From a virus: 64,000 nt of DNA. The translations under genes and the position numbers were made by a program. The stretch is from positions 90,765 to 154,764 of the IMG/VR virus record IMGVR_UViG_3300045988_058602. One strand, written 5' to 3'. Under the pieces are notes generated by a model. That model did no database searches, was not told where the DNA came from, and saw only the letters and a list, made by a program, of their open reading frames with translations. Shown here in pieces: positions 20,077-63,374 of this stretch (positions are counted from its first letter, which is position 1; each line of letters opens with the position of its first letter).

Positions 20077-20628
20077 TTACTCCAGACTAATTAAACCCTT
20101 CTCTAACATAATATGGTGATTCGGACATAACCATACTAAATTATTCTCGTTGTTAATCTCCTTAATAAGAGTGTCTTCGTCAAATTCTAATATTCCTTTA
20201 AGATGATGTACTTCAAGTATTGCATCAAATTCATGATTATGACAATATTGACATACTTTCTCACGTTCGGAACTTTCTAATACTCTACGAGCATTAGTCC
20301 TTATTTCTTGACATTTAGATGATAAGTACTTCTGCCCAGATGTATAATAACCTAATGTTTTGTTACCAATTCCATTAAGTTCTTCCCAGCAACTACGACA
20401 CATTTCTGAATCTTTATGCTTAGGTTTACCACATCTAGGACATATCTTGTTTTCATCGTGCTTTATCCTACCTCTATTATTGTAAGAAGCAGCACACGAA
20501 TGACTACAAAACTGTTTCTTCCTCACATCTGCGACCCTCTGATTATCTAGTACTTCGATTACCTTACCACATTCCTTACAGTGGTTAGGATTCTCATAAT
20601 ACAATTTAAGAGATTGTTCTCGATTCAC
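20077..20628 (-). CDS. HNH endonuclease with Cys-rich zinc-finger region
   Basis: C-terminal HNH motif with histidines (EVHHLKG...LCPNHH) plus several CxxC pairs. Confidence 0.65.
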   Translation of the reverse strand: MNREQSLKLYYENPNHCKECGKVIEVLDNQRVADVRKKQFCSHSCAASYNNRGRIKHDENKICPRCGKPKHKDSEMCRSCWEELNGIGNKTLGYYTSGQKYLSSKCQEIRTNARRVLESSEREKVCQYCHNHEFDAILEVHHLKGILEFDEDTLIKEINNENNLVWLCPNHHIMLEKGLISLE

Positions 20629-20778
20629 AGATAAGTTTAATTAATTTTAATGACAGTGTGATATGCAAGCCATTACACCACAGCCTCGATATTTAATCCC
20701 AGTACCATATTTCTCTGAGGATTTTTACTTGTTGTTTGATTTGTTCAGAAATTTTCTACATATTATTTACAGTGTTAG

Positions 20779-20850: not shown

Positions 20851-20876
20851 ATCGGTTGAACTATAGCCCTGTCATG

Positions 20877-21438: not shown

Positions 21439-21480
21439 ATGTTCCAGTTTATCTCTGATTAGAAAACTGGAGAAAAGAAA

Positions 21481-22300: not shown

Positions 22301-22596
22301 TATTTATTAAGCTTAAATTCTACTTCCTTTAATACAACGTATCTCTTACCGTCTTCCTTCTGTTCTATACAACCATTGGCCTGTAGAAAATTAATTATGA
22401 AGTCCATAGGAATGTGGTAATTGTCAGTTACAAGCATACTGCCATCAATATGATAGCGTTCTTTTCTCTCTAATCTAGTGGGATTACCATTTATAGTAAT
22501 CTCACCAGAACATTCATTATCCTTATCTGGTTTAATTCCCTTTATGTAAATAGAATAACCAGCTTCAGCTAAATAAACTTGTTGTATTACACTCAT
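22300..22596 (-). CDS. hypothetical protein (98 aa)
   Basis: Intact ORF. Confidence 0.4.
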   Translation of the reverse strand: MSVIQQVYLAEAGYSIYIKGIKPDKDNECSGEITINGNPTRLERKERYHIDGSMLVTDNYHIPMDFIINFLQANGCIEQKEDGKRYVVLKEVEFKLNK

Positions 22597-23018
22597 AGTT
22601 TTGGAACATCAGAACGGTTATCATGATAGCCCTCGTCCCCAACAAGTTGGGCTAAACAACCGTGCATATAAGGAACAAGTTCGGGTTTCTCCTTATAACA
22701 CCTGTATAGCATCCAACTCATGCTCATAGAGTTTCCACTATGACCATTATCAAAGTACGGAAGTTTGTCTTTGATAGCCTCAATCAGCTCAAATAAGCTA
22801 GGATATTTCTCATAGAAGGCTTTACATTCCTCTAGACTCATTTCTTTGAAAAACTCGGTAAACGATAAGGCTTGCTTTATACAACCCATTTCATAACCAA
22901 ATAGGTCATTTTCTTCAAATGTACCATCACCAGCTTCAACGAACAAACGATTGAAACGTTCGATTCTCTCCTGAAATTCTTTCGGAAGAGATTCCTTTGT
23001 AAGATTCTTGAAATCCAT
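22593..23018 (-). CDS. hypothetical protein (141 aa)
   Basis: Intact ORF. Confidence 0.45.
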   Translation of the reverse strand: MDFKNLTKESLPKEFQERIERFNRLFVEAGDGTFEENDLFGYEMGCIKQALSFTEFFKEMSLEECKAFYEKYPSLFELIEAIKDKLPYFDNGHSGNSMSMSWMLYRCYKEKPELVPYMHGCLAQLVGDEGYHDNRSDVPKL

Positions 23019-23041
23019 AATCTAATTTTAATTGTTAAAAA

Positions 23042-23112
23042 TAACTTAGTAGCGGGAGTCGGATTCGAACCGACGACCTTCAGGTTATGAGCCTGACTAG
23101 CTACCTCTGCTA
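23042..23112 (-). tRNA. tRNA-Met(CAT), copy 1
   Basis: D-stem TAGC/GCTA, anticodon stem TCAGG/CCTGA, loop CTCATAA. Confidence 0.6.
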
Positions 23113-23125
23113 TCATCCCGCGATA

Positions 23126-23311
23126 TTACAAATGCTTTTTAATTAGTTTACAACGATTATACTCTCCTCCCCATCTAATAGGAAACTCTTTTTCCTTAGC
23201 CTCTTTATACTTCTCTGCCTGTTTCTTGTCTAAGAAGATTTGGCAATCAGTTTCATAATTTTGAGGAGCATTAGCTGGGTGATAATTTACTACAACTACA
23301 TATACTTTCAT
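23126..23311 (-). CDS. hypothetical protein (61 aa)
   Basis: Short intact ORF. Confidence 0.3.
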   Translation of the reverse strand: MKVYVVVVNYHPANAPQNYETDCQIFLDKKQAEKYKEAKEKEFPIRWGGEYNRCKLIKKHL

Positions 23312-23336
23312 AATTTTTTAAATAAAGTTTGTGGAC

Positions 23337-23404
23337 ACGCAGGGACTCGAACCCTATCTTCCGGTGTGCAAAACCAGCGCTCTAGCCATTTGAGCTAACG
23401 GCCC
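23337..23404 (-). tRNA. tRNA-Ala(TGC)-like, possibly defective
   Basis: 5' half GGGCCGTTAGCTCAAATGGCTAGAGCGCTGGTTTTGCACACCGG is a canonical Ala 5' half with the G3:U70 pair, but the 3' acceptor strand pairs at only 4 of 7 positions. Confidence 0.4.
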
Positions 23405-23931
23405 ATTTTTGGGATTTTCTTTTTAATTGGTGACATACCCATAAATTTCCACTGTTAAGATTCCATAACTTAACAACACCAGATAAGTTTTTTTTGTTTG
23501 AATCATGTTCTAGTAGCATAAGTTCGCAACCATGCTACTCTCTCAGTTCATCGACTATCGTGTCAGAAAAGGTCTTTATGATTCCGCAGGGACTGGCTTC
23601 AACTTAAACCCCGAATGGATTTTTACCTTGCCAGGTCAGGATATTATTACGTTTCTAGCACTCTGAATTGATTTAGCCTGTTTAATCTTATAATCACGAA
23701 CTACTTCTTTCATATAAGAGTTAAATTCCTTCATGTCTTTCCATGAAATCTCATTAGCTAGTTTTGGAGTTTGAAACATTTTGTACTTTTCTAATAGGTC
23801 TTTCATTTCTCTCTTTAGTTTTCAAAGCATTTTCACACGCTTGTTTCTTCATTACATATGGACAATCACAATTTCCACTGTAGTACCAACAACAATAATC
23901 ACACTGATGCATAATCTAATATAAGGTCAAT

Positions 23932-24003
23932 AGCTGGGGCACATGGACTCGAACCATGATTCTTTGATTAACAGTCAAAAGTTCTGACCTTTGAACTATA
24001 CCC
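23932..24003 (-). tRNA. tRNA-Asn(GTT)
   Basis: Acceptor TGGGGTA/TGCCCCA, anticodon loop CTGTTAA. Confidence 0.65.
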
Positions 24004-24249
24004 CAATAGTTAATTTTCTCCACGGGTGTAGATAAGTACCCCTTTGGTACTTACCTTTTAGTAGTATCTTTACTCTAGACCTCTGTAGGGAGGTGGAATA
24101 GTTCCAGAAACTAACCATGTATAGCTCTTAGAACTCTGTTCAAAATACCACTTAGCAGCTTTCTTCACAACATTAATTACTTTCTTCATAACATCAAAGT
24201 TTAAAATTGTTAATAATTAATCTAATTCAGAGCCACAAAAGGAGTTTCG

Positions 24250-24328
24250 TTGCGGAGGTAGGATTCGAACCGTTTATGACGATTTCTAGGTTATGAGCCT
24301 AGCGAGATGACCACTTCTCTACTCCACG
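24250..24328 (-). tRNA. tRNA with CAT anticodon (Met or Ile2-type), copy 2, with an aberrant T-stem
   Basis: Good D-arm GAGA/TCTC and anticodon arm CTAGG-CTCATAA-CCTAG, but poor T-stem pairing and an odd variable region. Confidence 0.4.
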
Positions 24329-24474
24329 ATATTGGTAGCCACTTTACATCCGCTACCCAGGGATGCCTCTATCACCAGTGAGGCACGGACTATTCTAACC
24401 GTATAGCACGACTGGTTGGTAACGTCTCCAGACACGGCATTTAGACTGAAAATGTCGAAACAGTGATTTAAAGA

Positions 24475-25110
24475 TTAAATAGGCTCTGGAAGATATTTCC
24501 AAATATAGCCATACTATGATTTGGTTTTATTCTTACAGCATCCTATAATATGACTCTATGCAGATTTATTGTCAGTAATTCCGTTATTAATTAACCATTC
24601 CTAAGCTTCTCTGGAACCAAAGAATACCTGTATAAAATTACCTGCTAAGTCATACTAAGCAATTAACTTTGCGTTACTTTTTCTAATTTTTATATTATTT
24701 GCCTTCAAAACTTTGTAAATAGTGTCTTTACAGCACCCTATTTTTTCTTGTATCTAAGAACTAGTATATCCCAATCTAGCTAATTCTACAATTTCACTAT
24801 GATTGTATAGAATAGTGCCATCTCCTCCTTTAGAGGCATTGTACCCATTAGAACCATAAGTTCCTAGCTCTTTTATCCAATAGATTTCTCTTTCAGATAA
24901 TTCAGAGTTACTATCTACATATTCCAATTCCTCTATCATAAAGTTCTCAACACCATACTTATTCATGGCATCATATAAAGGTCTTTTGTTGCATCTTTCT
25001 TTCTAAAAGTCATAACAATGTTCCTTCCAGCGCTCTTCTATAGAAGTAGTAGTTTTTCCTACGTATCGCTTGCTATTAATTAAATTTGTAATGCAATAAA
25101 TATATGCCAT
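24475..25110 (-). CDS. GIY-YIG homing endonuclease (I-TevI/Seg-like) with 6 in-frame TAG codons
   Basis: N-terminal YIYCITNLINSKRYVGKT is a GIY-(10 aa)-YIG motif, and the C-terminus YGYIWKY is typical of Seg-type endonucleases. A single 212-codon frame is uninterrupted by TAA or TGA but contains 6 TAGs. The ORF-track fragments 24754-24966 and 25003-25266 are pieces of this gene. Confidence 0.6.
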
Positions 25111-25131
25111 ATTTTTAAATTTAAAATTAGA

Positions 25132-25216
25132 ATCCGTGGAGGGATTCGAACCCTCATTAAAGATTTCTCTTTTCAGTTTTGCAGACTGATGGCTAAACCA
25201 TTCACCCACACGGATA
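25132..25216 (-). tRNA. class II tRNA (long variable arm) with anticodon GCA and U73
   Basis: Acceptor ATCCGTG/CACGGAT, anticodon stem TCAGT/ACTGA, loop CTGCAAA, variable-arm hairpin AAAGA-GAAA-TCTTT; unusual body for a Cys anticodon. Confidence 0.45.
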
Positions 25217-25519
25217 TTAAGATTTAAAGTACTTCTCTCTAAATGGGATATTAAATAATGAATCATTAATATCCTTATCAGTTATTTCCCTACCTAGAGC
25301 CTTCTCCGCACATTCGCTACAGATAAACACATGGTGGTCTGGATAATAATCTTTACCTCCCCCTTTGTAATAAGAGGAGAATTTCTTTGCAGCTTCTTTT
25401 TCAAAATTGGTTAGCTTAAAGTAATTTATTATCTTGTTCCAAACCTCATCAATAAACATTGGAGAGTTATGGTCTCCATAATAAAATTCTTTATTACATA
25501 CTGTACACTTTATTTTCAT
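25217..25519 (-). CDS. Cys-rich zinc-ribbon-like protein (100 aa)
   Basis: CTVCNKEF...FICSECAEKAL. Confidence 0.4.
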   Translation of the reverse strand: MKIKCTVCNKEFYYGDHNSPMFIDEVWNKIINYFKLTNFEKEAAKKFSSYYKGGGKDYYPDHHVFICSECAEKALGREITDKDINDSLFNIPFREKYFKS

Positions 25520-25523
25520 AAAA

Positions 25524-25595
25524 CTTAAATTTTGAGTAGGTAATGAGAATCGAACTCACATCCTCGGCATGGCAAGCCGATGCACTAACCATTGT
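25524..25595 (-). tRNA. tRNA-Gly(GCC)
   Basis: Perfect acceptor GTAGGTA/TACCTAC, anticodon loop TTGCCAT. Confidence 0.65.
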
Positions 25596-25600
25596 GCTAT

Positions 25601-25675
25601 ACCTACAAATGTGCAGATAGAGAGACTCGAACTCTCCCCTTCAGATTGGAAGTCTGACGTGCTCAAACCATTAAC
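25601..25675 (-). tRNA. tRNA-Gly(TCC)
   Basis: Acceptor GCAGATG/TATCTGC, anticodon stem TCAGA/TCTGA, loop CTTCCAA. Confidence 0.6.
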
Positions 25676-25722
25676 ACCACATCTGCATTACGGAGAGTTA
25701 TACGATACTCTCCTAAACGTTA

Positions 25723-26067
25723 CTACGAATGTAGTAATTCTTGGGCCTCAATTTCGCCAATTATTTTAGTAAGTGCGATCTTGAATGGATTTCCCTTGAT
25801 TTTGTCGAAGAGATTGGCATCGCGTACCTCCTCAACTTTGTCTGGAACATTCAATTTTCTTTTACCGTTGTCTACGGTTTTCCATGTGATAACTGTGCAA
25901 CGCTTAACGTCATAAACGCTGTCGTTGCGATCAACGAACACCTTGAAGAAGTTTCTTTTGTGCTTTACTACCTCAACTCTTTTGAAGTTTTTGATAGGTG
26001 CGTGCATTTTCAAGTCACATCTTCCATTAGCTAAGAAAATCAATTCTGCCATAATAATACTCTGCAT
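25723..26067 (-). CDS. hypothetical protein (114 aa)
   Basis: Intact ORF. Confidence 0.45.
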   Translation of the reverse strand: MQSIIMAELIFLANGRCDLKMHAPIKNFKRVEVVKHKRNFFKVFVDRNDSVYDVKRCTVITWKTVDNGKRKLNVPDKVEEVRDANLFDKIKGNPFKIALTKIIGEIEAQELLHS

Positions 26068-26170
26068 AGTCAGAGATTCAAAGTTAAACTATGTTAATTA
26101 CAGTGCTATTCCCTGTCAGTCATTTCATTTTTAAACCAGTTACTATTCTTCACCTTAAAACGAACAAAAG

Positions 26171-26572: not shown

Positions 26573-26899
26573 CTATTATTTGTTTTCTCGCATTTCTGCG
26601 ATCTTTTCTATTCTCTTTTTTGTATTCGTATTGCGTCATTTTACTTCTATAAGGAGAAGTACAGTTTTTTAGCATTTTAGCATACTTAGAACCATCTAGA
26701 AAATCTGTAATTGATTCACAAACTCTTAATGCTTTATTCCTAAAAATAGGAACATTGTATTTTACAGTAGCTTTAATTCCATTAACAGGAATATAGAATC
26801 GTCCACAAGAATCATAGACCTTTTTAGCCCTAGAAACCCACTTTCTTTTAGAAAGCTCTCTTCTTAATTTTCTGTCCATAGGCAAATAAATTAGTGTAG
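26535..26899 (-). CDS. hypothetical basic protein (about 120 aa)
   Basis: The ORF-track start at 26924 would overlap tRNA-Cys; the start was trimmed to avoid that. Confidence 0.35.
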
Positions 26900-26973
26900 A
26901 ATCTGGAGTGGGATTCGAACCCACGAAACACGGTTTTGCAGACCGTTCCCTTAGACCGCTCGGGCATCTAGAC
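26900..26973 (-). tRNA. tRNA-Cys(GCA)
   Basis: Anticodon stem ACGGT/ACCGT, loop CTGCAAA, U73 discriminator, T-loop TTCGAAT. Confidence 0.6.
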
Positions 26974-30144: not shown

Positions 30145-30463
30145 TTCACTACAATTTGTTCTTCAGATTTTAATTTAGCTGGAGCATCAAAATGTAACTT
30201 ACCACATCTTACACACCAACAAACTCCAAATGAATTTTCTCTCACTTTACATCTGCCTTTCTCACAGATTTTAACTACTTTTCTGTAATTCTCCTTATCC
30301 ATAATTATATAATTTAGAAATACAGCCTTACTACCCCTATGTTCCTAGTTATTCTTTAGCTAGCTTTAGATTATTACTAGGTAATACCGCAACGGATTTA
30401 TTCAGCTGACTTTACCGCCTCTTGGTATGCAAGGCTAGGTCTCCCTAGCGAAGCTGTATTTAG

Positions 30464-30535
30464 TTGGGCTACCAGGACTCGAACCTGGACTCTCAGAACC
30501 AAAATCTGATGTGACTACCATTACACCATAGCCCA
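30464..30535 (-). tRNA. tRNA-Gln(TTG)
   Basis: U1-A72 acceptor TGGGCTA/TAGCCCA, D-arm TGGTGTAATGGTAG, anticodon loop TTTTGGT. Confidence 0.65.
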
Positions 30536-33183: not shown

Positions 33184-33369
33184 TTATAATGAAACCTTAT
33201 ATTTATCCCAATCACTGGTTAATGTCAAGGCTCCTTTAACATTTATTTCACTTGAGGGAATCTCATACATGTCCCCAGTTATAACTACTACAAATACTAC
33301 ATCACAAGTAGAATTATCAAAATGTCTAATCTTAGAATCTCCAGATGAACCTCCGCAATTCTTCAACAA
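33184..33369 (-). CDS. hypothetical protein (61 aa)
   Basis: Short ORF. Confidence 0.3.
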   Translation of the reverse strand: MLKNCGGSSGDSKIRHFDNSTCDVVFVVVITGDMYEIPSSEINVKGALTLTSDWDKYKVSL

Positions 33370-33737
33370 GACTTCATAATTTCCACTCTTTACCTAATGT
33401 TGAGTAGTTTTAACTGATACTCTCTTCAAACCCTCTTTATCTACTACAATGTCATATTTCTATGTATCATTCAAGGGAATTAGGACCGGAATGCAATGAG
33501 CAGTATAGTATGCTATAGCTCTTCCTAGTCCTAAATTTCCTTGATGAGATTTATACTAACTTTCCCAAGCGTTCATTTTTACAAAATTTGTATTAGATTT
33601 TCATCTTTACGATTACATTAAACCTGACTCTGCCACCCTTCCAAAAGCTAGTCTTACGACTAGCCAAGAATCATACAAAGAAGCACTAATACACAGAATA
33701 TAGCTAGAATACACCAGCCTATAGCCTGGACTGCTCC

Positions 33738-37222: not shown

Positions 37223-37375
37223 ATGCAAACACGTGTTTCACAACAAATGTTTACTAGCGGAATAAAAGAAAAAGACTTCCCTATTAATAGGGAATTATTT
37301 CTCTATCTTAGAGAAAGTATAATTTAATCTTTCTATAGATATGATGCAATCTTTTGCAAAGTTTATACCTTTTGT

Positions 37376-37588
37376 CTAATTATTAGCTGGAGGTTCCTCC
37401 CTAATAGTAATAGAATTTCTATTAGCAACATCACATTCTGGAAATATATAGATGTTATGAAGGTCGCAACATATCATAATATCTATTTCATCCTCGTTGT
37501 ATTTGTGAACGGTCCCTTTGTTATAATTATTACTTGTTAAACTAAAGTTCAACGAGTTATTTACAGTTTTACTCGCAGTAGTTTTCAC
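37376..37588 (-). CDS. hypothetical protein (70 aa)
   Basis: Short ORF. Confidence 0.3.
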   Translation of the reverse strand: MKTTASKTVNNSLNFSLTSNNYNKGTVHKYNEDEIDIMICCDLHNIYIFPECDVANRNSITIREEPPANN

Positions 37589-37777
37589 CTAAGTTCTGTA
37601 AAACTTGTTATTATAATATATAACAAAATCAAATGGTAGATTGTCAGACATTGGTAATAAAATATCTAATCCATATTTTGATAATTCACCAATGGCTATA
37701 CGCTCTCCTATTTCTCCGAGCTACTTTTTGTTTCTTAATTCGTCTACATTTATCATAGCTTAATTATTTAAAGTTGG

Positions 37778-49581: not shown

Positions 49582-50796
49582 ATGGCGAAAATACAATTTG
49601 ATCCAGAGTTAATGTAGCATATCAAGACTATATATGGAGACGCAGAGTTAGACGGAAGAACTTTACAACAGTTGCATTAGACTTGGCAAAGTAATCCGAA
49701 CTCTATTAGAAATACTGCATAGTAGAAGAAAAGAAGTGCTGTGCCAGCTATACAACAAAAACCTATATTAGGATTAAAGCCGTCTACTCCTACTATTCCT
49801 AAGAAAATAAATGCACCTTAGCAACAAATTCAAAACGACGACTTAAGAGGAGTCTAGGGGTTTGGTACAGCATTTAGAGAAGCCAGAAAGAGAGGACTAA
49901 CTCAATTCAAATGGGGGAAAGGAGTGTATGGAACATAGTTAGCTAATGGAAAGAAAGCAACAGTAGAGGTAGGAACTCCAGTAATGAATAATCCCTATGT
50001 TACATATAGTCAAGACGGAAAAAGAGCTACTACGTACCAAAATCAAGTAGACTAGGAAACTGGAGAGCATACTGGAACTATCCAAGAACAATGGATAAAG
50101 CCGCCTACAACTAATATGTATGGGCAGAAACTAACTCCAGAATAGCTCAAAAATTAGAGAAGTTGGGAACATATACCAAAGGCAACTGCTAGATAGCAAC
50201 GAGTTAAATATCAACAAGGAGGAGCAATGGCTAATTAGGAAGAATTACAAAAAGCATTTATGGCATACTTAATACAGGATGCCGCAGCACAAGGAATACA
50301 ATTACAATCTGAGTAGGATTTAGAACAATATGCTCAGCAATTAGGAGAAGACGGAATTAAAGCCAAATACCAGGAATTTATGCAAAAAATGCAAGGTGGA
50401 GTTATGGCTAGATTAGGAGCTAAGCTTGAGTACTATAAAAAATTAAAAGGAGTTTGCCCAGAAGGGGAAGAACTTGTTTATTTTAAACAAGGAGGTAGAA
50501 TTTGTAAAGCCTGCCAGAAAGCTTAGAAAGGTGCTAAGGTAAAAGGTAACGAGGTAGACAAATTTAAGAAAGGAAGAGCACAGTATAAGAAAGATATGAA
50601 ATCAGCGAAAGATGAAGCTTCCAGAGATTCTATATCTATTAATAAATATAATGATTAGGAAACCATGTCTAATAAAGGACATAAAGGAAACTTCCAAAAG
50701 GGAAAATGGGTTCCTGATAGAAAGCAATATACTAAAAAGGATGCTTGTGGCTCTAAAATGAAAGTAAGCAAGTGTGGCTCTAAAATGAAGAAGTAA
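49582..50796 (+). CDS. late protein (404 aa), TAG-recoded, Gln-rich
   Basis: Single frame from ATG 49582 to TAA 50794 with about 20 in-frame TAGs and no TAA or TGA. Confidence 0.55.
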
Positions 50797-50829
50797 GAAA
50801 AGATTGTCGAATGTTAATGATTAATGATT

Positions 50830-51390
50830 ATGAATGTATTTAACTATAACACTTTAACTAAATAGTTAGAAATAAATGAACCAGAGATTCTTCTAGTTAA
50901 AGAGTTTAAAGCTTTACTGCAAAGAGATAAATCTGTGGAAAAGGATAGAGCAATTAGAGAACTATCATACATTTATTTAGCTATTGATTGGAAGAGTCCG
51001 TATAGCTAGTACTCTGAATATGAAAGGCACGATGAAGCAATTAATGATTCTGGATTAACAGAATCAGAATTTAATGATCCGATATTTAGGGAAGCATGTA
51101 GAAAATATAGAGCATTATAGGACTCAAATAAATCAATTAAATTATTAGAAGCTGCTAGAAGAGCTGCTGACTAGTTTATTGATTACTTCGATACTATTGT
51201 AGACTTAAATGAACGTGACACTAATGGAAAGCCAGTATTCTCTGCTGAGAAAGTAATGAAGGAAATGGCTAGCCTTCATAAAGTTCACGAAGAATTAATT
51301 ACATTAGAAGATGAGGTTAAAAAAGAACTTACTGAATAGTCTACCGTTAGAGGAGGGGCTACAGATGGTTTTGATCCTGGAGAATTTTAA
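50830..51390 (+). CDS. putative small terminase / DNA-packaging accessory protein (186 aa), TAG-recoded
   Basis: Frame ATG 50830 to TAA 51388 with 6 in-frame TAGs; the call rests on its position directly upstream of TerL. Confidence 0.4.
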
Positions 51391-51392
51391 TT

Positions 51393-53753
51393 ATGCCAAG
51401 AAAGAAAAAGATATTACCTGATGAACTATAGACTATAGTAGATTAGGTAAGAGAAAAAGAACATAAAGAAGATGCTGTAGAGGCAAGAGAGCTAGTATAG
51501 AAAATAAGAGAAGAAAGGGTCAAAAGTGCAGACTATTGGGATGTCAAGAAAGGAGACAAGATAGATGTTTTTGACCCTACTTTGTCTTATGAGATAACTG
51601 GCTATAGACCTATTGATGAAACGCATGGTTTGGACTTTAATCCCGAATGGTTCACCGAAACCAGAGAAGTATACAGAAAGACTGGGAAGTATTGTCCCTA
51701 CTTAAAAGACAGTAAGAGATACAATGAATTTTGGAAAGAGTAGTACAGAAGATGTAAATATGGAATGACAGTTAATGGTTATACTATTACTGGAGATAAC
51801 TATTTCTTCTTAAATTTCTATTAGCTTCCTATTATTGATGATAATAAAGCATCCGGTGAAGGAACTAATAGTGACTTCCCTATATTCTTTGCATCCCATT
51901 ACATGTTCTTCCATTACTTACAAATGGCTAGAGTACTACATAGACATGCAGCTTTAATGAAGGCTCGTTCAATCGGATTCTCAGAAATAAATGCCTCACT
52001 ATCCGCTCGTATGTATTCTGTAATTAGAAGAAGTAGAGTAATGATTACTTGCTTTAATGATACCTTCCTTAAAGGTACATTTAGTAAGTTTGATAATGCT
52101 CTAACATTTTTAAATACTTGCACAGGTGGAGGATTCTTTAAGCTTCGTCTAATTGACCAGGATTTAAGAAAGAAGTCTGGTAAGTAGGTTAAAGTAAACG
52201 GATAGTTTGAAGATGTTGGATTTAAATCAGAAGTAGTAGGAATAAATGGAGCTAAACCATCTAATATTCGTGGAGACCGTGTTGACTTATTAATATATGA
52301 CGAAGCAGGGTCTTGGCCAGGATTAGATACTGCTGTGGTACAAGGACAAGAACTTTGTGAAGTCTAGGGTAAGCCTCGTGGAACAATGTTGTTTGGAGGT
52401 ACTGGTGGTGATATGGGTGCTCCATTAGCAGGTCTTAAAAAGATTTACTATAATCCAAAAGCTTACAAAGTTCTTCCCTTTAGACATAATTATACTCAAG
52501 ATGGGACTACTATTGAGAGTGGATTCTTTATTCCATATTTTGTACAGTCTTTGAACTCCGAATACATGGATCATAGAGGCGTATGTAATACCGTAGAATA
52601 TAAGAAGTATCTGTAGGAAGAAAGAGATAATCTATTAGCAGTACCCGATGACTATTTAAAGAAGTGTGCTGAACGTTGTTGGAATGCAGAAGAAGCCTTC
52701 AATCTAGAAGGTGTTAACAAGTTTAACAAAATTCTTATTTCTGATCAATTAGCTAATATAAGACTAAAGAAAATAGGTCCCAGACCAGAATGTGGTTATA
52801 TAGATTACTTCTATAAAAATAATAAACACACTGCTGATAACATTGATGGATTTAAGTGGATTCCTAATACTAAGGGAAAGGTAAAGATTCTGGAACATCC
52901 AGTATGGTCTGACCTATATAAGGAGTAGATGGATAAACTTAGATAGGAAGCAGAGGAAAGAGGAGAGGAATTTGAAGCACCTGTATATAAAGAAATGCAT
53001 AATCTTTATATTGCAGGAATAGACGGTATTGATATAGGAGCTAATTAGACCTCGAAGGAAACTAAAGATCCTTCTGACTTCTGTATAACTATTAAGAGAA
53101 GGGCATTTGGTATGAGTGAGCCATAGTATGTAGCAATGTATAAGGACAGACCTGGAGACATTCGAGAGGCTTACAAAATAGCTATGTGTTTACTTAGATA
53201 CTACAACTGTAAGGTAAATATAGAAGCAACTCGTGTTGGTATGATTACCTGGGCTAGAGAAAAGAAATGTTTGAATTACTTTATGAAACGTCCTAGAGCT
53301 ACTCTTACTGATGTTAAAAATGGAACTACTAAATAGTATGGAACTCCAGCTACTAAAACTATTATAGAACAACACACTGATCTAACTGCTGCGTTTGTGG
53401 AAGATTATTGTCATACTATATGGTTTGAAGAAATGTTGGAATAGCTTACTGGATATAATGACGAGAATAAAGGTAAGTTCGATATTATAGCAGCTATGGG
53501 TATGACAGAATTAGCAGATGAAGAGTTGTCTGGAAGATAGCCTATAGTTGTGGAAAAAGAAGTTGAATTGTTCAGGGATTTTGGTTATTATTACGATGAG
53601 AGAGGAATAAAAAGATTTGGAGTTATACCAACTAGCGAAACTCCAGAATTAAATATGCAAGACGATGAATACGATGACCCATACAGAATTGAAACAAGTG
53701 ATCCTAGAGTATATGAGAGACTTATACCAAATGGAATATATAGGCGGACTTGA
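51393..53753 (+). CDS. terL: terminase large subunit (TerL), TAG-recoded
   Basis: Frame from ATG 51393 to TGA 53751 joins the ORF-track fragments 51903, 52386, 53136 and 53550. It contains an ATPase Walker B motif DLLIYDEAGSW and a nuclease motif IAGIDGIDIG, with about 17 in-frame TAGs. Confidence 0.75.
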
Positions 53754-54009
53754 GATTGAGGATTTGAATCCAGTTGGTTACAAAATATCTTTTAACTTTG
53801 ACAGGTCTGAGATGCCATTAGTAATCATAGCTGATTTACCCGATGATGAATTTCTGCCTTTTATTAAAGAAGAATTAAGAAGTAGGAAGTTATAGAGAGT
53901 TAAGTATTATAACGCCACTAAGCTTCCTCCAGAACAACATAATACATGTTATGAAAGAGAAAGAATTGATAGACAAAACAAACGAGGCTATTGCGGAACT
54001 TGTGTATGA
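53665..54009 (+). CDS. possible small overlapping ORF (114 aa) with 1 TAG
   Basis: Alternative frame overlapping the TerL 3' end and the portal 5' end; uncertain. Confidence 0.2.
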
Positions 54010-56125
54010 TAAATATGAGCTTTAGAAAGCTTATAATTATTATAATGGTAAAAGAGATCCAGAATAGTTTCGCTATCTTGAAGAGAATTTTGGAATAGGC
54101 AGTCCTACATCAGTAGAATTTACACCACTACTTAAGAAGCATGTAGATGCTTTAGTAGGGGAATATCTAGGAACTCCAATACTCCCGAAAGTCTCTTGCA
54201 AAGATTCAGATACTATCAGTAATATAACCAGAGAAAAATAGCTAGAGATAACTAAAGGAATAGTTAAGTTTTTAAAAGATCACTTAAGTAATGCTATCTT
54301 AAGCTTTATTGACGGAAAAGATATTACTGATAAAGCTGTAAAGACTCAGCTAGATAAGGTTATATAGGATATTGATTAGTCATTCATTTCTCAGTATGAA
54401 ATTGCTGCGCAGAACATTATTCACTACCTAATGCAATCTAGGGAAACTGATCTTATTACTAAGTTGCGGTAGTTATTAACTGACTTACTAATTACTGGAT
54501 ACACATTCTTTAGAGTAAAGTCTTCTTTCTCCGGAACTAATGTGGAGATAGAGGTTCTTAACCCATTAAATACGTTTGTTGATAGAAATCCAGAATCTCC
54601 ATATGTCAAGAAATCATATAGAGTTGTTATTAGAAAATGGATGAGTAAAAGCCAAATACTAGCTAAGTATGGTAAAGAAATATCTAGGGAAGACTTAAAG
54701 AGGTTAAAAGATGAATGGAGAGCAGATGATTCTGCTGCCGTATACAGAAGAGTTTATGGAGATGTTTGTACAGTGGTTAATGAAGATCAAAATCATGAAA
54801 CCATTCCTGGGTATCCAGATAATGAATATAGTGCTCATAGATTTTAGTTAATTCCGGTCTACGATGTAGAGTGGATAGAGACTGATGATGATTTCAAAAT
54901 GCAGAGATACAATACTATAAGGATAGGAGAGGAAATCTATATTCTTAGAGGATTAGACAAGACTGCAATGAGGTCTAAAGACGATCCTAACTCTTGTTCA
55001 TTATCAGTAAATGGAGTTTATTTTCTAAATCGTTCTCAGTAGCCATATTCTTTAATACTTAAGTGTGCACATCTACAGGATAGATATGACTTACTTAACT
55101 ATTACAGAGACAACTTGATAGCTAATAGTGGAACCTCAGGAGTTATTATGGATATGTCATTACTTCCTACTAACTTAGGAGTACATTGGCCAGAAAGAGT
55201 ATAGAAATGGCTAGCTTATAAAAAAGCTGGTATTCAGTGGGTTGATACTACTTAGGAGGGTAGAAATGACAATGGAAACGCTCCTTTAAATACTATCTTT
55301 AATGGATTTGATGACACCCTTAAAGCGTAGGCTGTATAGGCTATTGAGTTAGCTATTCAATCAGTAGAATAGACTACATCATCTATAACTGGAGTATTTA
55401 GGGAAAGACTTAATGGAATAGAGACTCATGATGCTGTAACTAATATTAAGCAAGGAGTCGCTAACTCTTATATAGTAACTAAACACTATTTCCAACAAAT
55501 GGACTTGATAACTTGTGAAATATTATTAGATAGTCTTAATTAGGCTAAAGTAACTTACAAGAAAGGGTTAACTGGAACTATTATATTGGGAGATAAGTAT
55601 TAGTAGATATTTACTGCCCTTCCTGAATATTTCACAATGACTGATTTTGACATTCATATAACCTCCAGCACTGAAGTTATGGAAGATTTATAGACTATTA
55701 AAGCTATGATTCCGGAGTTCCTTAAGAGTTAGCAAATGGATGCTGGTATAGTTTTTGAAGCATTAACAGCTAAGAGTTTGACAGACTTAAAGTACAAGGT
55801 TAAAAAAGCTATGCAGGTTTAGAAAGAAGAGAACAATCAATTACAATAGTTGTAGTAGAAGTTGGAAGAAACTTCATAGCAAGCACAACAACTACAATAG
55901 GAATTGGAGAAAGCTTAGTAGAAAATAGAAAGGCTAGACGAACAAAAACTTGGACTAGAACAGTAGAAGATGCAACTAGAGTATAAGGTTAATTGGCTTA
56001 AAGCTCAGTCTGATTCTACTTACAAAGATAGACAAATGGATATTGAAGAGAAGAGAACTGAAATAGAGTTAGCATAGCTTCATGACGGAAATCCATATAA
56101 CGATAAAGTAAGACAAATACATTAA
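53951..56125 (+). CDS. portal protein (724 aa), TAG-recoded
   Basis: Frame ATG 53951 to TAA 56123 includes the fragment 54542-54847. N-terminal AYNYYNGKRDPEQF resembles the portal YYxGxQ motif. The C-terminal coiled coil becomes Gln-rich when TAG is read as Q. Confidence 0.6.
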
Positions 56126-56126
56126 T

Positions 56127-56996
56127 ATGGCTACAGCAGGTACAATAGTATATAATAAAGATTAGCAACAAATATATCCCATTTCTCATGCAGAGGTGGT
56201 AATTAGTAATGCTTCTGGAAGTAAGTCAGATGTAGAAGACAACCTTGTAAAATTATGGAAAAAGGTCTCAGAACTAAGTGGGGACTCGGAAGCAGCTAGT
56301 AATATCATGGTAGTAGTTACTTATTGTAAAACAAATACCAAAGATGAATCCGAAGTAAAAAAGTTGTCAACATGGAGTGATATTTTTGAACTACCAGACT
56401 CAGAAAGACCGTATGTTTGGAAGAAAACTCTATACACGTATAAAGGAGACACTGCTAAACTTAATGAGATTTACGAAATTGTTGCTACAGATATTGCTGA
56501 GAAAATTCAGAATATCTATATTGCAAGATCAACTGGGGTTGCACCAGTTATTACTTATCCAATACTAAAGGATGGATATGGAGATCCTATATTAGACTCT
56601 GAAGGAAATACTTAGGAAGATTTGACTGCCTTTGACAATAAATTACCAGAAGGCTGGTCAGAAACTCCAGTTAGTATTGGTCCAGCTACTCCATATGTAT
56701 TTATATCAACACGTAAGAGAGTAGAAGGATTATGGAAAAGATATTCTGAACCAGCTCAATACGGTAGGTGGGCATTTGACAGTTAGTTAGAGTTACGATA
56801 TACCATTACTTCTGGAGATAAACCAGCTGTTAATACTACAAGTGACGATCCTGGAAGTTAGTGGTCTAGCGATACTCCAGATAATTTTACTGGAAAAATG
56901 TGGATGATTACTGCAACATCAGTAAACGGAGTATTGAATAGTGATGAAAATAACGTTAGATGGCACGGTCCTCATTTGATGTCAATTATACAATAA
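56127..56996 (+). CDS. structural protein (289 aa), TAG-recoded
   Basis: Frame includes the fragment 56196-56615 and has 4 in-frame TAGs; TAA stop overlaps the next ATG (TAATGG). Confidence 0.5.
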
Positions 56997-57727
56997 TGGA
57001 ATTTAGTATTGATATACATACCCAGATTACTGGGGAAATAACTATTGAAGACTTCTCTAAAGAATATGGATAGTATATTGATGAAGATTTAGAAGTAGTA
57101 ACTTCTTACGACTCTTATAAGTATAGTGAGAGTGCTACTCTAAATACTATCATCAAGGTAAGTATAGGGGATGCCACACTAATAGATGTCCTTTTAAATG
57201 ACCATACAGAAGATTTAGATTCATGTACATTTAAAGTAAAAGAGGATGGATATTATGTGGTAGATCATATAATACTTCCTAATATGAAGTGGTATGAAAA
57301 TTCATCTGATGAATATAAGGAATACTACGAAACTATCTATGTTACAGATGGGGAGAAACTATATAAAGAAGTAGAAGGAGAGTTAGAAGAGTGTACGGTA
57401 AAGGAAATTCTAGAAAGAAACATAGAAGGCACTACTATCAAGAAGTGTAAGGTAGATGTATTCTTTACAGGGAATTTGCAATAGTGCTATATTAATTATT
57501 GTAAAAAATTATTTGACGGACTCCTAAATAAATGTGTTACCAATGAACATGAGGCAGATATTTTTGCCAGAGATTTTATTTGGATGACTCTCAACATTAT
57601 AGATTATTTAATAGGCTTTAAACAATTCATGGAAGCTGAAAGATTGCTAGCAATGTTCCGCACTTGTGGAGGATTCTGCAATACTCGCCATCATGGACAT
57701 AAACATATAAGTTGTGGATGCTCTTAA
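56996..57727 (+). CDS. hypothetical late protein (243 aa), TAG-recoded, Cys/His-rich C-terminus
   Basis: Frame includes the fragment 57257-57484; ends CGGFCNTRHHGHKHISCGCS then TAA. Confidence 0.5.
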
Positions 57728-57882
57728 AAGAAAGGCTATTAAAAGGTATGAAGAGTTTCTTGGAAGAATTAAGAAAGGATATAGACCAGATTATCAAGAT
57801 ATTTTGAATTTAATCTGTTTTATTAATCTACCTGTAAAACTAGATAATCACGAATTTATTAAATAGCAACTATTAAATCATA

Positions 57883-59469
57883 ATGATACAGCCTATTTAC
57901 ACTTCGGTAAGCAATGCTGACATAAAGCCTTGTGGAAAGAAAGGACATTTAATAAAAAGTGAGCCTATACCACTTCTGAGAGATAATTACTTAGGAGAAT
58001 ATAGAACAGAACTAGAAAGAGCTAAGGTTAGAAAAAACTTAGGAATTGCTGATGAGTAGAGTCTTCTTTGGGGAAACATTAGTGGAACTATAGAGGCCTA
58101 GAAAGACTTAGTTTAGTATATTGAACAAAAATGGACATATACTAGCGATGTTGCAGAGAATATTAACACTGTAAAAGATGCATTAGACTATGCATTGTTT
58201 TTTATTAGTTAGTATGAGGCTAATACTGAGGAAATAGAAGAGATAAAGGTTGATATAAGTAATATTAGGACTAGCATTTAGGTATTAGGAGAAGATCTAA
58301 AAAGAGAGATTGATACTAATAGGGAAGGACTAAATAACTTGTCTTAGGATATAGTTGAAATTAATTAGGCAATATCTAATATCAATGCTGCTATAGAAAA
58401 TATAGACGTTGATAAGAACATTCTTAATTGGATTAAAAACAATCTTTAGAACTCTAAGACTGTAGAGATAAAGGAAGATAATACTATAGAAGTTATTCTT
58501 TCTAAGCAGGATGATAATGCTATTCATTTAATTGAATAGGAATTACCTCCTGCAGAAGAAGGGGAACCTTCTACTATAACTCTTCCAGGAATCTATGTAA
58601 AGAATCTAGAACCTTAGTTAGAAGAAGCTTAGAAATCTATAGAAGAAGTATAGAAAGCTTAGGAAGAGACTAATGAAAAAGTTAGTACTAATAGTGAGAG
58701 TATTACAAATATTTAGACTAGTCTAGAAACTATAGCTACCTATTAGACAGAACTTCCGGATGATACAACTTCTACTGTTATAGAAGGTACTACTGTTGAA
58801 AAATTAAAAGGAAAACCATTTAATGAAATCATAGATACTTTACTATTCCCAACAGTAGTCAGAGATTTAATATATCCATAGTTGTATTATAGCTTTACTT
58901 CCCAAATTGTGGAAGTAGGAACCGCATTACTAAACCCAACCTTAACTTTCGTAAAAAATGATGCAGGAGAAGAAACTGACAGAGAAGAAGTTATTACTTA
59001 TAACGGTTCTCCTATAGAGTCTGCTACATATGATTCTATTGGAGTTTATACTCATTCTGGTACAGTAAACTATGCTGCTGGAGAATACCTAGTAAACAAT
59101 AAGGGAGAAATCACGGATAAGAGGGTAGAAGCTGGTTCTATATCAGCAACTGCACAAGTAACAGCTACTTATCCTTGGTATTCCGGAAATACTGATGGGC
59201 TAATAAAATAGTCTTTAGTTCCATTTAATTAGGCTTCTGGCACTATTACATTTTCGTTAAGCGGTAGGGCTATTATAAAACTACCAGGAAGTAATACTCA
59301 GCTAAATTCCTTCACAGTAGATGGAGGATTGGGATATTTGAATGTCGATCTGAATGGTTGGGAAGCTTCTACTGAACAAATAAATGGATTCCCATATAAA
59401 GTATGGACTAAGAAGGATACCTACTCTTCAGCACTACCTCACCAAATTAACTTTATTCTATCACAATAA
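57883..59469 (+). CDS. tail/structural protein with coiled coil (528 aa), TAG-recoded
   Basis: Frame includes the fragment 58882-59211 and about 20 in-frame TAGs; TAA overlaps the next ATG. Confidence 0.5.
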
Positions 59470-61337
59470 TGGCATTTAAATATACAGGTGATGCTACCCT
59501 AGGTGTTGGTTTAACCGTAGAAACTCCGAAGCCTCTGGATAATAGAACAGTAGTTGATAACCTAGAGGAGCTATATTCTATTCCAGAGAAATATGCTTAT
59601 TAGGGCATGACCGTATCTAATATAGATAACGGAAATATTTATATGCTTATTGATAAGTCTAAGATTAAATATAAAGAAGGATGGAAAGCGTCTTATGAAT
59701 CTATTCAGATAATAGCTTGTACAGAAGCTGAATATAAAGAATGGTCTGCTAATACTACAGAAGATTTTAAACCAATAGATGAGAATAAAACATATCTTCA
59801 CGCTGAAACATATTATTATATATATGAGGACAGCCTAGACGATAATTAGTTTTACCTATCAGCAGAATGGGGTAAGAAAATAGAAGAGTAGTTAAAGCAG
59901 AAAGCTCTTAATACTACAGTTGTATAGATTAGAAATGATTTAGACTAGACTATTTAGAATCTTTCTAAGTATGCAACATTAGAAGAATTAACTGCTAATT
60001 ATGCTCCTAAGGCGGACCTAGATTTGGAAGATCCAGAATCCCTTTTATCTAAAGCTCTGTCTAACCACTATACTAAACAGGAAACAGATGATATATTTGT
60101 TACTAAGGAAAGTCTTAGAGGGGAAGGAATAGAAGGAGATGATTTCGTCTTTGTTACTAAAAAGCAATATGACGAAGATTAGTAGGCTATCTAGAGCGAA
60201 TTAGATAAGACTTTAAAAGTAGATGGAGATGGTTCTCTGGAAAGTATTACTGTGGGACAGATAAAATCTCCAGTGATTGAAGGAGAGGATTAGCTAGTAG
60301 TAGATGTTAAATCAGACGGATTGTTTGTTGGAGAAGATCAATTTGCTATGATGTCTGATGTCCCAAATTTAGTTACATTAACTGAAGAGGAATATTTAAA
60401 ACTGGTAGAAGATGGTACTCTAGAACCTGACACATACTATTATGTGTATGACGTGACAAATGACGCTAAAGTCTATATTACTAAAGAGTATCTAGATTAG
60501 AATTACCATACTACTCATTAGTATTAGTCATGGGTAGCTACCAACTACTACTCAAAATCTCAGATTGATGAGATAGTTGCTGGTTTACAGAAACTTGGGA
60601 GCTACGTTACTACAGAAGATATTAAAGCATATTACACTAGTCAATAGGTAGATGAAAAGTTTCTTACAAAAGAGAATGCTCAATCTACATACGCTACCTA
60701 GTAGTCATTAACGGAGCTGTCTGGATAGATAGCAGAAGAGTATGTAACAAAGGATAGTTTGAGAGGAGATTCTCCCGAGACTGGTGATGATGACTTTATA
60801 TTTGTTACTTAGAATAAATATCAATAGGATTAGACTGCTGCTTCCCAAGAATTTAATACTAAGCTATTAAAATCAGAATAGATAGAAACTTCTGACATTA
60901 CTATTTAGAAAATTGTAGAAAAAGAAGTACAATAGGGAACAACTGAAGAAAGTCCAGGAGATATAGTAATAGAGCAAACTATTGAAAGCTCTATTAATCT
61001 TACTACTGAAGATAATAGGTTATTAGCATCAGGTAAACAAGTTGCTCTTATTGAAGAAGTTCCAAAATTAGTATGTTTACCCTAGACTGATTATGATAAC
61101 CTAGTTGAAAATAATAAGACAGAGAACGATACTTATTACTGTACTTACGGAGAAAAAGATATATAGGATACAGGATATGTTAGAAGCGAATATCTTACTG
61201 AAAAGTACTATACTAAAGCAGAGGTAGAAGCTTTGATACAGGAAGCTGTAAGCGAATTATAGAAAAAGATAGATGCAATATAGCCTGGTTCGGGCAGTGC
61301 ATCAGTAGATGAATCAAATGAACAATTAATATTTTAA
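59469..61337 (+). CDS. tail fibre/structural protein (622 aa), TAG-recoded
   Basis: Frame includes the fragment 59607-59849 and about 35 in-frame TAGs; TAA at 61335. Confidence 0.5.
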
Positions 61338-61342
61338 ACAAG

Positions 61343-61552
61343 ATGGGAACAATTTATATTGACGGACAGTTTAAAAGCTCTGCTAAGCCTGTAAAAGTTG
61401 TTAGTGGTAGTGTAGGAGGGTCTGGAGTAGATCCTGATACTCTCAAGAACTATGCTACTAAAGCAGAACTTCAGAAAGCTGTTGAGGACTTAACTGCTTC
61501 CATAGAAGGAATAGATCATGATGTAGTTGAAGAAACTTTAATAATATAGTAA
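61343..61552 (+). CDS. small late protein (69 aa)
   Basis: The ORF-track fragment ends at TAG; the real stop is the TAA immediately after it. Confidence 0.4.
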
Positions 61553-61553
61553 T

Positions 61554-63374
61554 ATGGCAGCTATCAAATCTATAAAGGTAGGAGAAATTACATACGACTT
61601 AAAGGCTACTTATGATGGTTCTGGCAACAATATTGCCGAGACCTATGCTAAATCTAGTGCTATTCCGACTAAAGTATCATAGTTAAGTAATGATAAAAAC
61701 TACCTAACAGAACATTAGGACATTAGTGGTTTAGCAACTAAAGAATAGATAGACGAAAAAGTAGACAAGGAATTAGGAAAAGGTCTTTCCGAAGCTAATT
61801 ATACTGAATTAGAAAAATAGAAGCTTTAGGGTGTAGAAGATGGTGCAAATAATTATGAACACCCAACTACAGCCGGATACAAACATATTCCCTCTGGAGG
61901 AGCAGCAGGATAGATTTTAACTTATTCTAATGATGGTACTGCTCAATGGGCAGATTCTAGCACTAAGTTAGATTAGCAATTCTAGGCACTTAATGAGGCT
62001 TGGGAAGAACTTCAGAAAGCTTAGCAAAATTTAGATAGTTAGGTAACAGCTATGACTAGTAACGCAGATCTTTACTCCTATGGAGTAGAATGGGATATAA
62101 CTGTATCTTCTCCGGTTCTCACCAGAATTGGAAACCCGTTACTGCATAAATCACTTCCTATTCAGTCTGCTTATAGGGGATGCGTAGCCAATGGAGCTAA
62201 TATAAACTATTTCTTACATCCAGATAATTGGGCTTATAAGGAAGACGGTACTACTCCCTCTGTGCTTGATGGTAGTGAAGGAACTGTTAGGGTTAACACT
62301 CCTAAGTTCTATGGTAAGTCTGGTTCCAATGGAAATAAAAGATGGGTAAGAGAATCAACTGTTAAGATAGACGACTCTTGGGTTGAAATACCGGAATTGT
62401 TAATTGATGCATATAGAAGCACAGTTGATACTACAGTATCTGCAACTCCAAAGGCTGTATCAGTAGTTAATACTACTACAGCATTTAGAGGAGGTGGAAA
62501 TAGAGCATAGTTCGACGAGTACTTGACTACTGAGCTGGAGACTAAAGATATTTTCAGAAGCGACTTAGGAAAACCAAGAACGAATATTTCCAGAGCCACA
62601 ATGAGAACTTATGCTACAAACGCAGGTTCTGAATTACTATGTTACGAATATTACAAGTGGATATTCTACTGGAATTATGTAATAGAATATGCTAACTTTA
62701 ACTCTTAGGCTACATATGAGGCAGAGCTTACTGCTGATGGCTATCATTAGGGAGGTCTTGGGCCCGGAGTTACGGATTGGAGTAATTCTGACACAAGTTG
62801 GTCTGGATATAACGGAACTTATCCTCTTACTCCATGCGGTCACTGTAACGATATTGGTAATTTCACAGGAGTTAAAGATTTAGTTATCCCAGGATGCACT
62901 GCAACAGATGGAACTAGTACAGTGGCTACTCATACTTTTAAAGTACCTCGTTGGAGAGGCTTTGATAATCCATTTGGAGACATTTGGACAAACCTAGATG
63001 GAGTAGTTATTCAAAGAACTGCAGCGAATGAAATAAGTAGTGTATATACTACCACAGATAAAGCGGAGTTTACTGACGTAATTGGCAACAAGACTATAGC
63101 CGGATACGAGGTAGCACAAGATGGATACATTAAAGAGTTTGATTTAGGAGAGACAGCGGAGATTATACCATCTTCTTGTACTGGAGCTTCAATTACTACT
63201 TATATGTGTGACTACCACTATTGTAACGCTAGCTCTACAGCGCTTCGCACGCTGCGGGTGGGCGGCGGCGCGAATTATGGCGGCGGGGCGGGTCTCGGCT
63301 CTTTCGATTCTAGCAATGGCGTCGGCGGTGCCTTTTCCTATGTCGGGTTCAGGACTCTAAATAGAGTATCTTAA
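61554..63374 (+). CDS. tail fibre protein with a C-terminal FGE/C-type-lectin-like variable domain (606 aa), TAG-recoded; primary DGR target
   Basis: One frame joins the fragments 62052, 62523 and 62922. The tail-fibre motif SGGAAG(Q)ILTYSNDGTAQW is present, with the Q encoded by TAG. The C-terminus ...RTLRVGGGANYGGGAGLGSFDSSNGVGGAFSYVGFR is encoded by VR1. Confidence 0.65.
63242..63349 (+). repeat. DGR variable repeat 1 (VR1)
   Basis: GC-rich island ctgcgggtgggcggcggcgcgaattatggcggcggggcgggtctcggctctttcgattctagcaatggcgtcggcggtgccttttcctatgtcgggtt aligns to the TR; nearly every mismatch is at a TR adenine. Confidence 0.8.

Follow-up and report, generated by a model that had tools for sequence, protein, structure and literature searches.

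A free-standing GIY-YIG homing endonuclease gene with six in-frame TAG codons in the tRNA cluster of an apparently Zeta-type crAss-like gut phage

In T-even phages, the translation of I-TevI, I-TevII, I-TevIII, segB and mobE is restricted to late infection by RNA hairpins (PMC2988022). Borges et al. (bioRxiv 10.1101/2021.08.26.457843) described in Agate phages a group I intron endonuclease that lies within an early gene and is recoded at TGA, and proposed that the in-frame stops block production of the endonuclease until late infection. For crAss-like phages, block-wise reassignment of TAG to glutamine (code 15) has been described (Yutin 2021, PMC7886860; Peters 2022, PMC9523058; Mgcod, 10.1101/2022.06.29.495998). 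A recoded endonuclease gene in an early region was known once, for TGA. Here we describe, in a stretch of 64,000 nucleotides (nt) from the virus record IMGVR_UViG_3300045988_058602 (positions 90,765 to 154,764; hereafter the window), a homing endonuclease gene (HEG) of the GIY-YIG type, which lies on the minus strand in a cluster of 27 tRNA genes and carries six TAG codons in frame. We consider it likely that the gene encodes a functional, mobile, free-standing enzyme of the I-TevI type, the full-length protein of which would depend on a suppressor tRNA and be restricted to late infection, a timing that we infer.

Like the Agate endonuclease, the window HEG sits in a standard-code early region and prefers the reassigned stop codon of its phage; however, the Agate case concerns TGA read as tryptophan in an intron-encoded gene, whereas here TAG is read as glutamine in a gene standing free between tRNA genes of a Zeta-type crAss-like phage, and the pattern covers three nuclease folds (GIY-YIG, PD-(D/E)XK and HNH) and several lineages. 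With T4 SegB it has in common a free-standing GIY-YIG gene in a tRNA cluster and variable presence, so the likeness to the free-standing seg genes of T4 tRNA clusters, suggested in an earlier note on this DNA, holds for the layout. In T4, translation of segB is delayed to late infection by a late promoter together with a hairpin in the RNA that masks the ribosome-binding site, while for the window HEG the delay would come from stop-codon recoding. The likeness to SegB is positional, SegB itself lying outside the alignments made; in a tblastn search of 50,697 phage records the T4-type matches were to I-TevI only (residues 4-104, 37% identity). I-TevI and the HEG both have a catalytic domain, a linker and a DNA-binding part, their catalytic domains are 34-37% identical with all catalytic residues kept and a TM-score of 0.83, and late translation is documented for I-TevI. 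They differ in that I-TevI is intron-borne (td) and in the C-terminal module: that of the HEG is similar to the module of HNH HEGs such as I-KsaI, and in the HEG no zinc finger was detected. As in the code-15 crAss-like phages, the window has a tRNA with a CTA anticodon, a TAG-free, dual-coded early block and TAG-rich late genes, with the code switch at the strand switch and the size and mobile-element load of the Zeta type. The literature describes contiguous recoded blocks, whereas in the window the late code is used by single genes standing within the dual-coded block.

The HEG frame starts with the ATG at 25110 and comprises 211 sense codons followed by TAA. TAG occurs at codons 36 (25003-25005), 119 (24754-24756), 152 (24655-24657), 170 (24601-24603), 185 (24556-24558) and 199 (24514-24516), and neither TAA nor TGA is found within the 211 codons; the remaining two frames of 24475-25110 hold 8 and 22 TAA/TGA. 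Given the trinucleotide frequencies of the minus strand here, 211 random codons would be free of TAA and TGA with P ~1e-5, and we therefore take the frame to be real. The earlier note had described a long minus-strand frame with six TAG and no TAA or TGA, had called it improbable by chance and had assigned it a GIY-YIG N-terminus; all of this is confirmed, the last by a match to Pfam PF01541 over residues 1-91 (E=6e-13; 49.3 bits, the cut-off being 22.6). If TAG were as frequent as in the early genes, 0.03 would be expected over 211 codons, and if as frequent as in the late genes, 6.3; six are observed. With table 11, the frame is split into seven pieces. As to whether such fragments could be independent or degenerate, which the earlier note had raised, the gene is, on sequence evidence, one and intact: its homology to PHROG 314 ('homing endonuclease') extends over residues 1-206 and runs through all six TAGs. 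The tRNA-Cys gene lies 19 nt upstream and the tRNA-Met gene 146 nt downstream.

The aligned catalytic domains of the HEG and I-TevI (PDB 1MK0/1LN0, E=1.4e-9) place Y5, Y16, R27, H31, E75 and N91 opposite Tyr6, Tyr17, Arg27, His31, Glu75 and Asn90 of I-TevI, and these six residues are invariant across 65 homologues. In total, more than 1,000 homologues were found, mostly of 209-214 amino acids (aa). The structure was modeled with AlphaFold2 on P0001, a database protein 99% identical to the window HEG. The 211-aa part of this model is confident (pLDDT 77-92 across the GIY-YIG domain), while a 52-residue N-terminal extension of P0001, which lies over the tRNA, is disordered, which speaks for translation beginning with the ATG at 25110. 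In Foldseek, I-TevI 1MK0/1LN0 came first (TM-score 0.83-0.84, root-mean-square deviation 2.0-2.9 Å, probability 1.0), and the part of the HNH endonuclease I-HmuI that binds DNA came fourth (probability 0.99). According to the model, the catalytic domain would be followed by a linker (low pLDDT, model residues 146-153), a helical segment resembling a helix-turn-helix (weak Pfam matches, protein residues 105-138) and a C-terminal beta-alpha-beta module (pLDDT 96-97), predicted to bind DNA. Residues 150-205, with the motif YGYIWKY among them, share 48% identity with a module of the HNH HEGs of staphylococcal phages, a module common to HNH HEGs such as I-KsaI. Module shuffling of this sort is usual among homing endonucleases. 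Chimeric alleles of the HEG were also seen (L002 10001-10798; L106 and L116 ~13117-13361; L-numbers designate the fetched loci of relatives), in which the N-terminal half is nearly identical to that of the window HEG and the C-terminal DNA-binding half has been swapped, which indicates, at the sequence level, domain shuffling inside the family.

No group I or group II intron was detected, either at the Rfam gathering thresholds in the whole window or at E<=1 in 24100-25400, although highly diverged introns could escape these searches. Near the HEG, the Rfam scans returned tRNAs only, and the 146-nt 3' spacer gave no fold signal relative to shuffled sequences (z=0.04). Since no intron was detected around the gene, the HEG is regarded as free-standing rather than intron-borne.

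Among 120 database homologues, glutamine occupies the position of TAG codon 152 in 120/120, of codon 119 in 107/120, of codon 36 in 50/120 and of codon 170 in 43/120, and it is the plurality residue at the latter two. Given that database homologues might themselves have been translated with code 15, the DNA of the loci was inspected instead, which gave 20 distinct TAG-bearing copies of the HEG. In these, codon 152 is TAG in 6, CAA in 7 and CAG in 6, codon 119 is TAG in 8 and CAG in 4, and codon 36 is TAG in 9 and CAA or CAG in 4; in TAG-free homologues, codon 152 encodes glutamine in 3/5. The window also encodes a tRNA with a CTA anticodon (amber suppressor), upstream of the recoded structural genes. 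Its closest counterpart among the window tRNAs is tRNA-Gln(UUG), with which it has the D arm, the T arm, U1-A72 and A73 in common. Because TAG, CAA and CAG interchange at the invariant Gln152 and the CTA tRNA is nearest to tRNA-Gln, TAG is read here as a predicted glutamine sense codon, which bears out the recoding read into the frame by the earlier note. For other crAss-like phages, glutamine at UAG was demonstrated by (meta)proteomics (Peters et al. 2022, PMC9523058). A further tRNA, with a TTA anticodon (by its anticodon a TAA suppressor), was noted at 41439-41509 (-) in this phage, which uses TAA as its main stop, and a RAGATH-14 RNA (RF03145, 156.6 bits, above gathering) lies at 41536-41742 (-), 27 nt upstream of it.

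The window has a GC content of 36% and its coding strand flips at ~44 kb. Before the flip, 82 minus-strand open reading frames (ORFs) are nearly free of TAG, among them genes for nicotinamide phosphoribosyltransferase, RNase H, an AAA ATPase and Band-7 proteins, with tRNA genes alongside. The recoded plus-strand block includes the large terminase (16 TAGs), the portal protein (28 TAGs) and a tail protein. The labels "early" (minus block) and "late" (structural block) were assigned from the gene content, the strand layout and the avoidance of TAG. As a share of CAA+CAG+TAG, TAG accounts for 1/215 in 50 ordinary early genes, 110/207 in late genes and 12/16 in three endonuclease genes, namely the HEG and two PD-(D/E)XK genes introduced below. 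TAG usage in the endonuclease genes is at the late-gene rate (Fisher p=0.12 versus late, p=6e-16 versus early). The terminase is ~26% identical to Crassvirales terminases, near-identical contigs measure 146 kb, related IMG/VR contigs measure 94-193 kb, and matches come from the human gut. In size, tRNA load, late-gene TAG recoding and mobile-element load, the phage agrees with the Zeta group as described for crAss-like phages by Yutin et al. 2021 (PMC7886860), and we provisionally place it among the large crAss-like gut phages of the Zeta type. The features are listed in Table 1.

Table 1. Features of the window, with positions counted from its first nucleotide
Feature	Position	Strand	Remarks
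GIY-YIG HEG, free-standing	24475..25110	-	211 codons + TAA; six in-frame TAG
Presence/absence cassette, 1,061 nt	24467..25527	-	zinc-ribbon ORF + divergent tRNA-Cys + HEG
Zinc-ribbon ORF, 100 aa	25217..25519	-	TAG-free; 5' end of cassette
tRNA-Cys(GCA), 86 nt	25130..25215	-	long variable arm; Rfam tRNA 56 bits; cassette member
tRNA-Met	24249..24328	-	downstream of HEG
PD-(D/E)XK endonuclease (PF11645, I-Ssp6803I-type)	33184..33576	-	E=6e-10; TAG codons 7, 39, 61
Second PD-(D/E)XK endonuclease (PF11645)	37295..37756	-	E=2e-23; TAG codons 12, 56, 127
HNH endonuclease ORF	20077..20640	-	TAG-free; tRNA cluster; kept in nearly all relatives
CTA-anticodon (amber suppressor) tRNA	44696..44768	+	Rfam 66 bits; head of plus-strand block, among TAG-free genes
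tRNA-Gln(UUG)	30463..30535	-	nearest window relative of suppressor tRNA
TAG-recoded late/structural block	49582..63374	+	2-28 TAGs per gene; late-codon-usage reference

The earlier note had held the HEG to be the only recoded gene in the early region. This does not stand: the same tRNA cluster contains two genes for PF11645 endonucleases with three TAGs each, and in an unbiased table of the ORFs of the window these two and the HEG are the minus-strand ORFs with at least three interior TAGs. The first of the two (33184-33576) has a stop codon that abuts tRNA-Ser(TGA), and the second (37295-37756) begins 18 nt after tRNA-Lys. Both belong to the Pfam family of I-Ssp6803I and are tRNA-associated like this founding member, which, however, lies inside a tRNA intron, whereas the window genes are free-standing between tRNA genes; their activity is predicted. 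When the 86 TAG-free early and middle ORFs were compared with Pfam, one HNH gene (20077-20640) came up, and no further GIY-YIG or PF11645 gene. From its distribution, this HNH gene seems to behave like a fixed or core gene.

The pattern extends beyond the window. All 20 distinct GIY-YIG copies of the phage group carry 2-6 TAGs among TAG-free neighbors, a more divergent 291-aa GIY-YIG gene in L003 has 8 TAGs, and recoded PD-(D/E)XK and HNH genes are present in relatives too. Single-gene TAG islands were also found in four more distant lineages (38-42% identity), with 9 TAGs in L056/L036 (beside a CTA tRNA), 7 in L059 and 4 in L034 (beside a tRNA cluster). In the early neighborhoods, the only recoded ORF found that does not encode an endonuclease is one of 396 aa in L028 (6103-7293, +), which contains seven TAGs in frame, has no match in Pfam and lies in a mostly TAG-free stretch. 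Several other TAG-bearing ORFs were rejected. In those at 8932-9543 of L001 and at 16783-17067, 7965-8966 and 6847-7407 of the window, the TAGs fall in 5' extensions ahead of the real start, as was also the case for the remaining early ORFs of relatives that had seemed recoded, and those at 23271-23519, 23754-23957 and 19865-20029 are artefacts overlapping tRNA genes. An extra tRNA at 23332-23404 (-), with 39.5 bits in Rfam and missed by ARAGORN, accounts for the spurious TAG-bearing ORF 23271-23603. A TGA-recoded replicate was discarded as well, the homologues without a covering ORF having no in-frame TGA or TAG.

The HEG is part of a cassette that is present or absent as a unit. In loci for which the nearby AAA ATPase gene served as anchor, about a dozen relatives lack the HEG and have in the place of the cassette ~158 nt with an odd tRNA and a 75-nt tRNA-Cys. 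In L105, L107, L109, L119 and L120, homology to the window ends at ~25528-25534 and restarts at 24466, eight bases past the HEG stop codon, with 98-100% identity downstream. In L105, the 75-nt tRNA-Cys directly adjoins the spacer, the HEG-less junction consisting of this tRNA followed by tcactgtttcgac... At the cassette's position in the same locus (12759-12840, +), ARAGORN called an 82-nt tRNA with an unusual ACT anticodon ('Ser'). The window has a second tRNA-Cys(GCA) of the normal 75-nt form at 26899-26973 (-), and the 86-nt tRNA-Cys of the cassette is unlike both this copy and the tRNA-Cys at the junction of the HEG-less relatives. The site next to tRNA-Met is occupied by a second GIY-YIG gene in L007 and by an HNH gene in L008. 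These patterns are the expected traces of free-standing HEGs with co-conversion of their flanks, and homing is predicted from them.

Within the fetched loci, the exact six-TAG allele was found in 29, over three near-identical DNA variants. Compared with copies 51-73% identical to it, the HEG has dN/dS values of 0.09-0.33, with dS near saturation in some of the pairs, and on these estimates it is under purifying selection. To L001, a near relative, the cassette region has 97% identity, against ~71-82% for most other aligned segments. In position, identity to L001 is ~97-98% in 17480-20689 and 21253-26111 and 71-82% in the neighboring segments; from the alignments, this mosaic indicates recent recombination around the tRNA/HEG region.

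Some further observations concern stop codons and RNAs of the early block. Several genes end in TAG followed by TAA or TGA within 0-10 codons, at 18266-18718, 19157-19849, 25720-26067 (a tandem TAG-TAA), 28414-28572, 39057-39236 and 43364-43831 (all -), as well as at 61343-61552 (+). This suggests that in the early block TAG may still end translation, the second codon being a back-up stop for when TAG is suppressed, and a comparable arrangement has been reported from Zeta phages (PMC12386605). A full-model match to the Rfam tmRNA family (RF00023, 69 bits against a gathering threshold of 47) at 20874-21438 (-) in the tRNA cluster, with no ARAGORN call, may be a phage-encoded tmRNA-like gene. 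Scans for promoters and terminators gave counts not clearly above those in shuffled sequences, the sigma-70 consensus being unsuited to Bacteroidota/crAss and the 'terminators' being tRNA arms.

The proposed explanation can be put as follows. An intact enzyme requires TAG to be decoded as glutamine, judging from the frame, and hence the HEG could probably be made only once the phage suppressor tRNA works. Under host decoding, ribosomes would stop at codon 36 and free a peptide of 35 residues, because this first TAG precedes the catalytic Glu75. When the glutamine-type CTA tRNA decodes TAG efficiently, the full-length enzyme would be produced, in the same decoding state that would translate the terminase, portal and tail genes. 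Possible benefits, if the arrangement is adaptive, are that no cleavage would take place before replication or that toxicity would be limited. A parallel would be found in the T-even phages, where hairpins confine the translation of I-TevI, segB and mobE to late infection.

Several points weigh against this explanation. TAG185 and TAG199 align with K/S/N and with Ala in the homologues, not with Gln. The first TAG lies at or before codon 36 in 12/12 distinct TAG patterns, but the corresponding P ~1e-4 (uniform placement) is inflated by shared ancestry, with six distinct first positions only. One PD-(D/E)XK allele has 0 TAG and 4 CAA, two HNH types, including a 211-aa HNH, are TAG-free, and distant GIY-YIG genes at L085 10001-10792 and L074 9929-10810 have 0 TAG (9-11 CAA/CAG) even within recoded blocks, where several neighbor genes have 5-18 TAGs each. 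Recoding of the endonucleases is, therefore, frequent and not obligatory. Also, the early and late labels were derived from the content and strand layout of the genes, and the suppressor tRNA could already be expressed when infection begins. Finally, the endonuclease TAG share is not separable from that of late genes (p=0.12), which neutral drift under relaxed selection for early translation would also give.

This last point leads to the alternative that survives best, neutral tolerance, which we regard as possible but clearly less probable than suppressor-dependent, late-restricted expression. If endonucleases are not needed early, TAG could drift to equilibrium in their genes, through changes of CAA/CAG to TAG and by origin of TAG from GAG/AAG, and suppressor dependence would be a by-product and not regulation. 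The endonuclease TAG share of 75% versus 53% in late genes (p=0.12), the TAG-free alleles of the PD-(D/E)XK gene with CAA replacing TAG, and the wide differences in TAG positions among alleles are in line with this, as is the fact that the endonuclease kept in nearly all relatives is the TAG-free, core-like HNH. However, 20/20 distinct GIY-YIG copies of the group are recoded, with the first TAG ahead of the catalytic Glu in every distinct pattern, and the islands repeat in four more distant lineages. Many small TAG-free early ORFs are presumably dispensable as well, yet interior TAGs were seen in no other supported early ORF (86 in the window and ~400 in relatives, the 396-aa ORF of L028 aside). 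Sequence alone cannot decide between a selected gate and a neutral by-product, the neutral reading being allowed by a TAG frequency like that of late genes and by the alleles free of TAG.

It is also conceivable, if unlikely, that the TAGs reflect the history of the HEG family among code-15 phages, perhaps via late regions, and not the present position of the gene. Family copies do occur at different sites in related genomes (in L092, L107 and L120, for instance, one with 79% identity lies upstream of the AAA gene), and the chimeric alleles (L002), the mosaic identity around the cassette and the distant homologues without TAG in apparently standard-code contexts would all fit a pool of genes confined to one code. 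On the other hand, TAG is found at codons 36 and 119 in alleles just 60-73% identical, and so appears to be old and kept in place, and three unrelated nuclease folds act alike. Moreover, such an origin is compatible with suppressor-dependent late expression and does not exclude it.

We consider it still more doubtful that the six TAGs serve to attenuate dose, with competition between suppression and RF1 keeping a potentially toxic nuclease scarce throughout infection. HEGs are held at low levels by several mechanisms (PMC2988022), and six TAGs per 211 codons, or up to nine in L056, might act in this way, but abundant structural proteins carry 13-28 TAGs each, so suppression must be efficient when those are made, and the TAG density of the HEG is that of late genes. 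A pseudogene, or two ORF fragments with the TAGs as true nonsense, is very improbable and was rejected: table 11 does give seven pieces, but there is no TAA, TGA or frameshift over 211 codons (P ~1e-5), homology is unbroken across the TAGs, the catalytic residues are intact, dN/dS (0.09-0.33) points to purifying selection, TAG swaps with CAA/CAG at an invariant Gln, the identical TAG pattern recurs in 29 loci, and the full-length model is confident.

With suppressor-dependent late expression as the preferred explanation, what is new here is the TAG version of a recoded early-region endonuclease, free-standing and in a tRNA cluster, in a Zeta-like crAss phage, together with the occurrence of endonucleases of three folds, in several lineages, as single-gene islands of late code. 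The result extends the idea of Borges et al. and does not establish it. The recoded islands provide a natural internal control, within a TAG-free block, for the proposal that code switching times translation, and the early-block genes found in late code are homing endonucleases, a class for which delayed translation is documented in T4. The finding also bears on annotation, since code calls made by block (Mgcod, 5-kb windows) or with table 11 would fragment such genes or label them as pseudogenes, and mobile elements would consequently be undercounted in crAss-like genomes.

A wider proposal would see stop-codon recoding as a general, convergent "late gate" for selfish nucleases of three unrelated folds in code-15 phages. 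We put this forward tentatively and with more doubt than conviction. If it is true, the endonucleases would stay silent until the suppressor is active, in a manner equivalent to the control by hairpin and late promoter in T4, and they would be confined to the pool of code-15 phages, being inert in standard-code phages or in the host.

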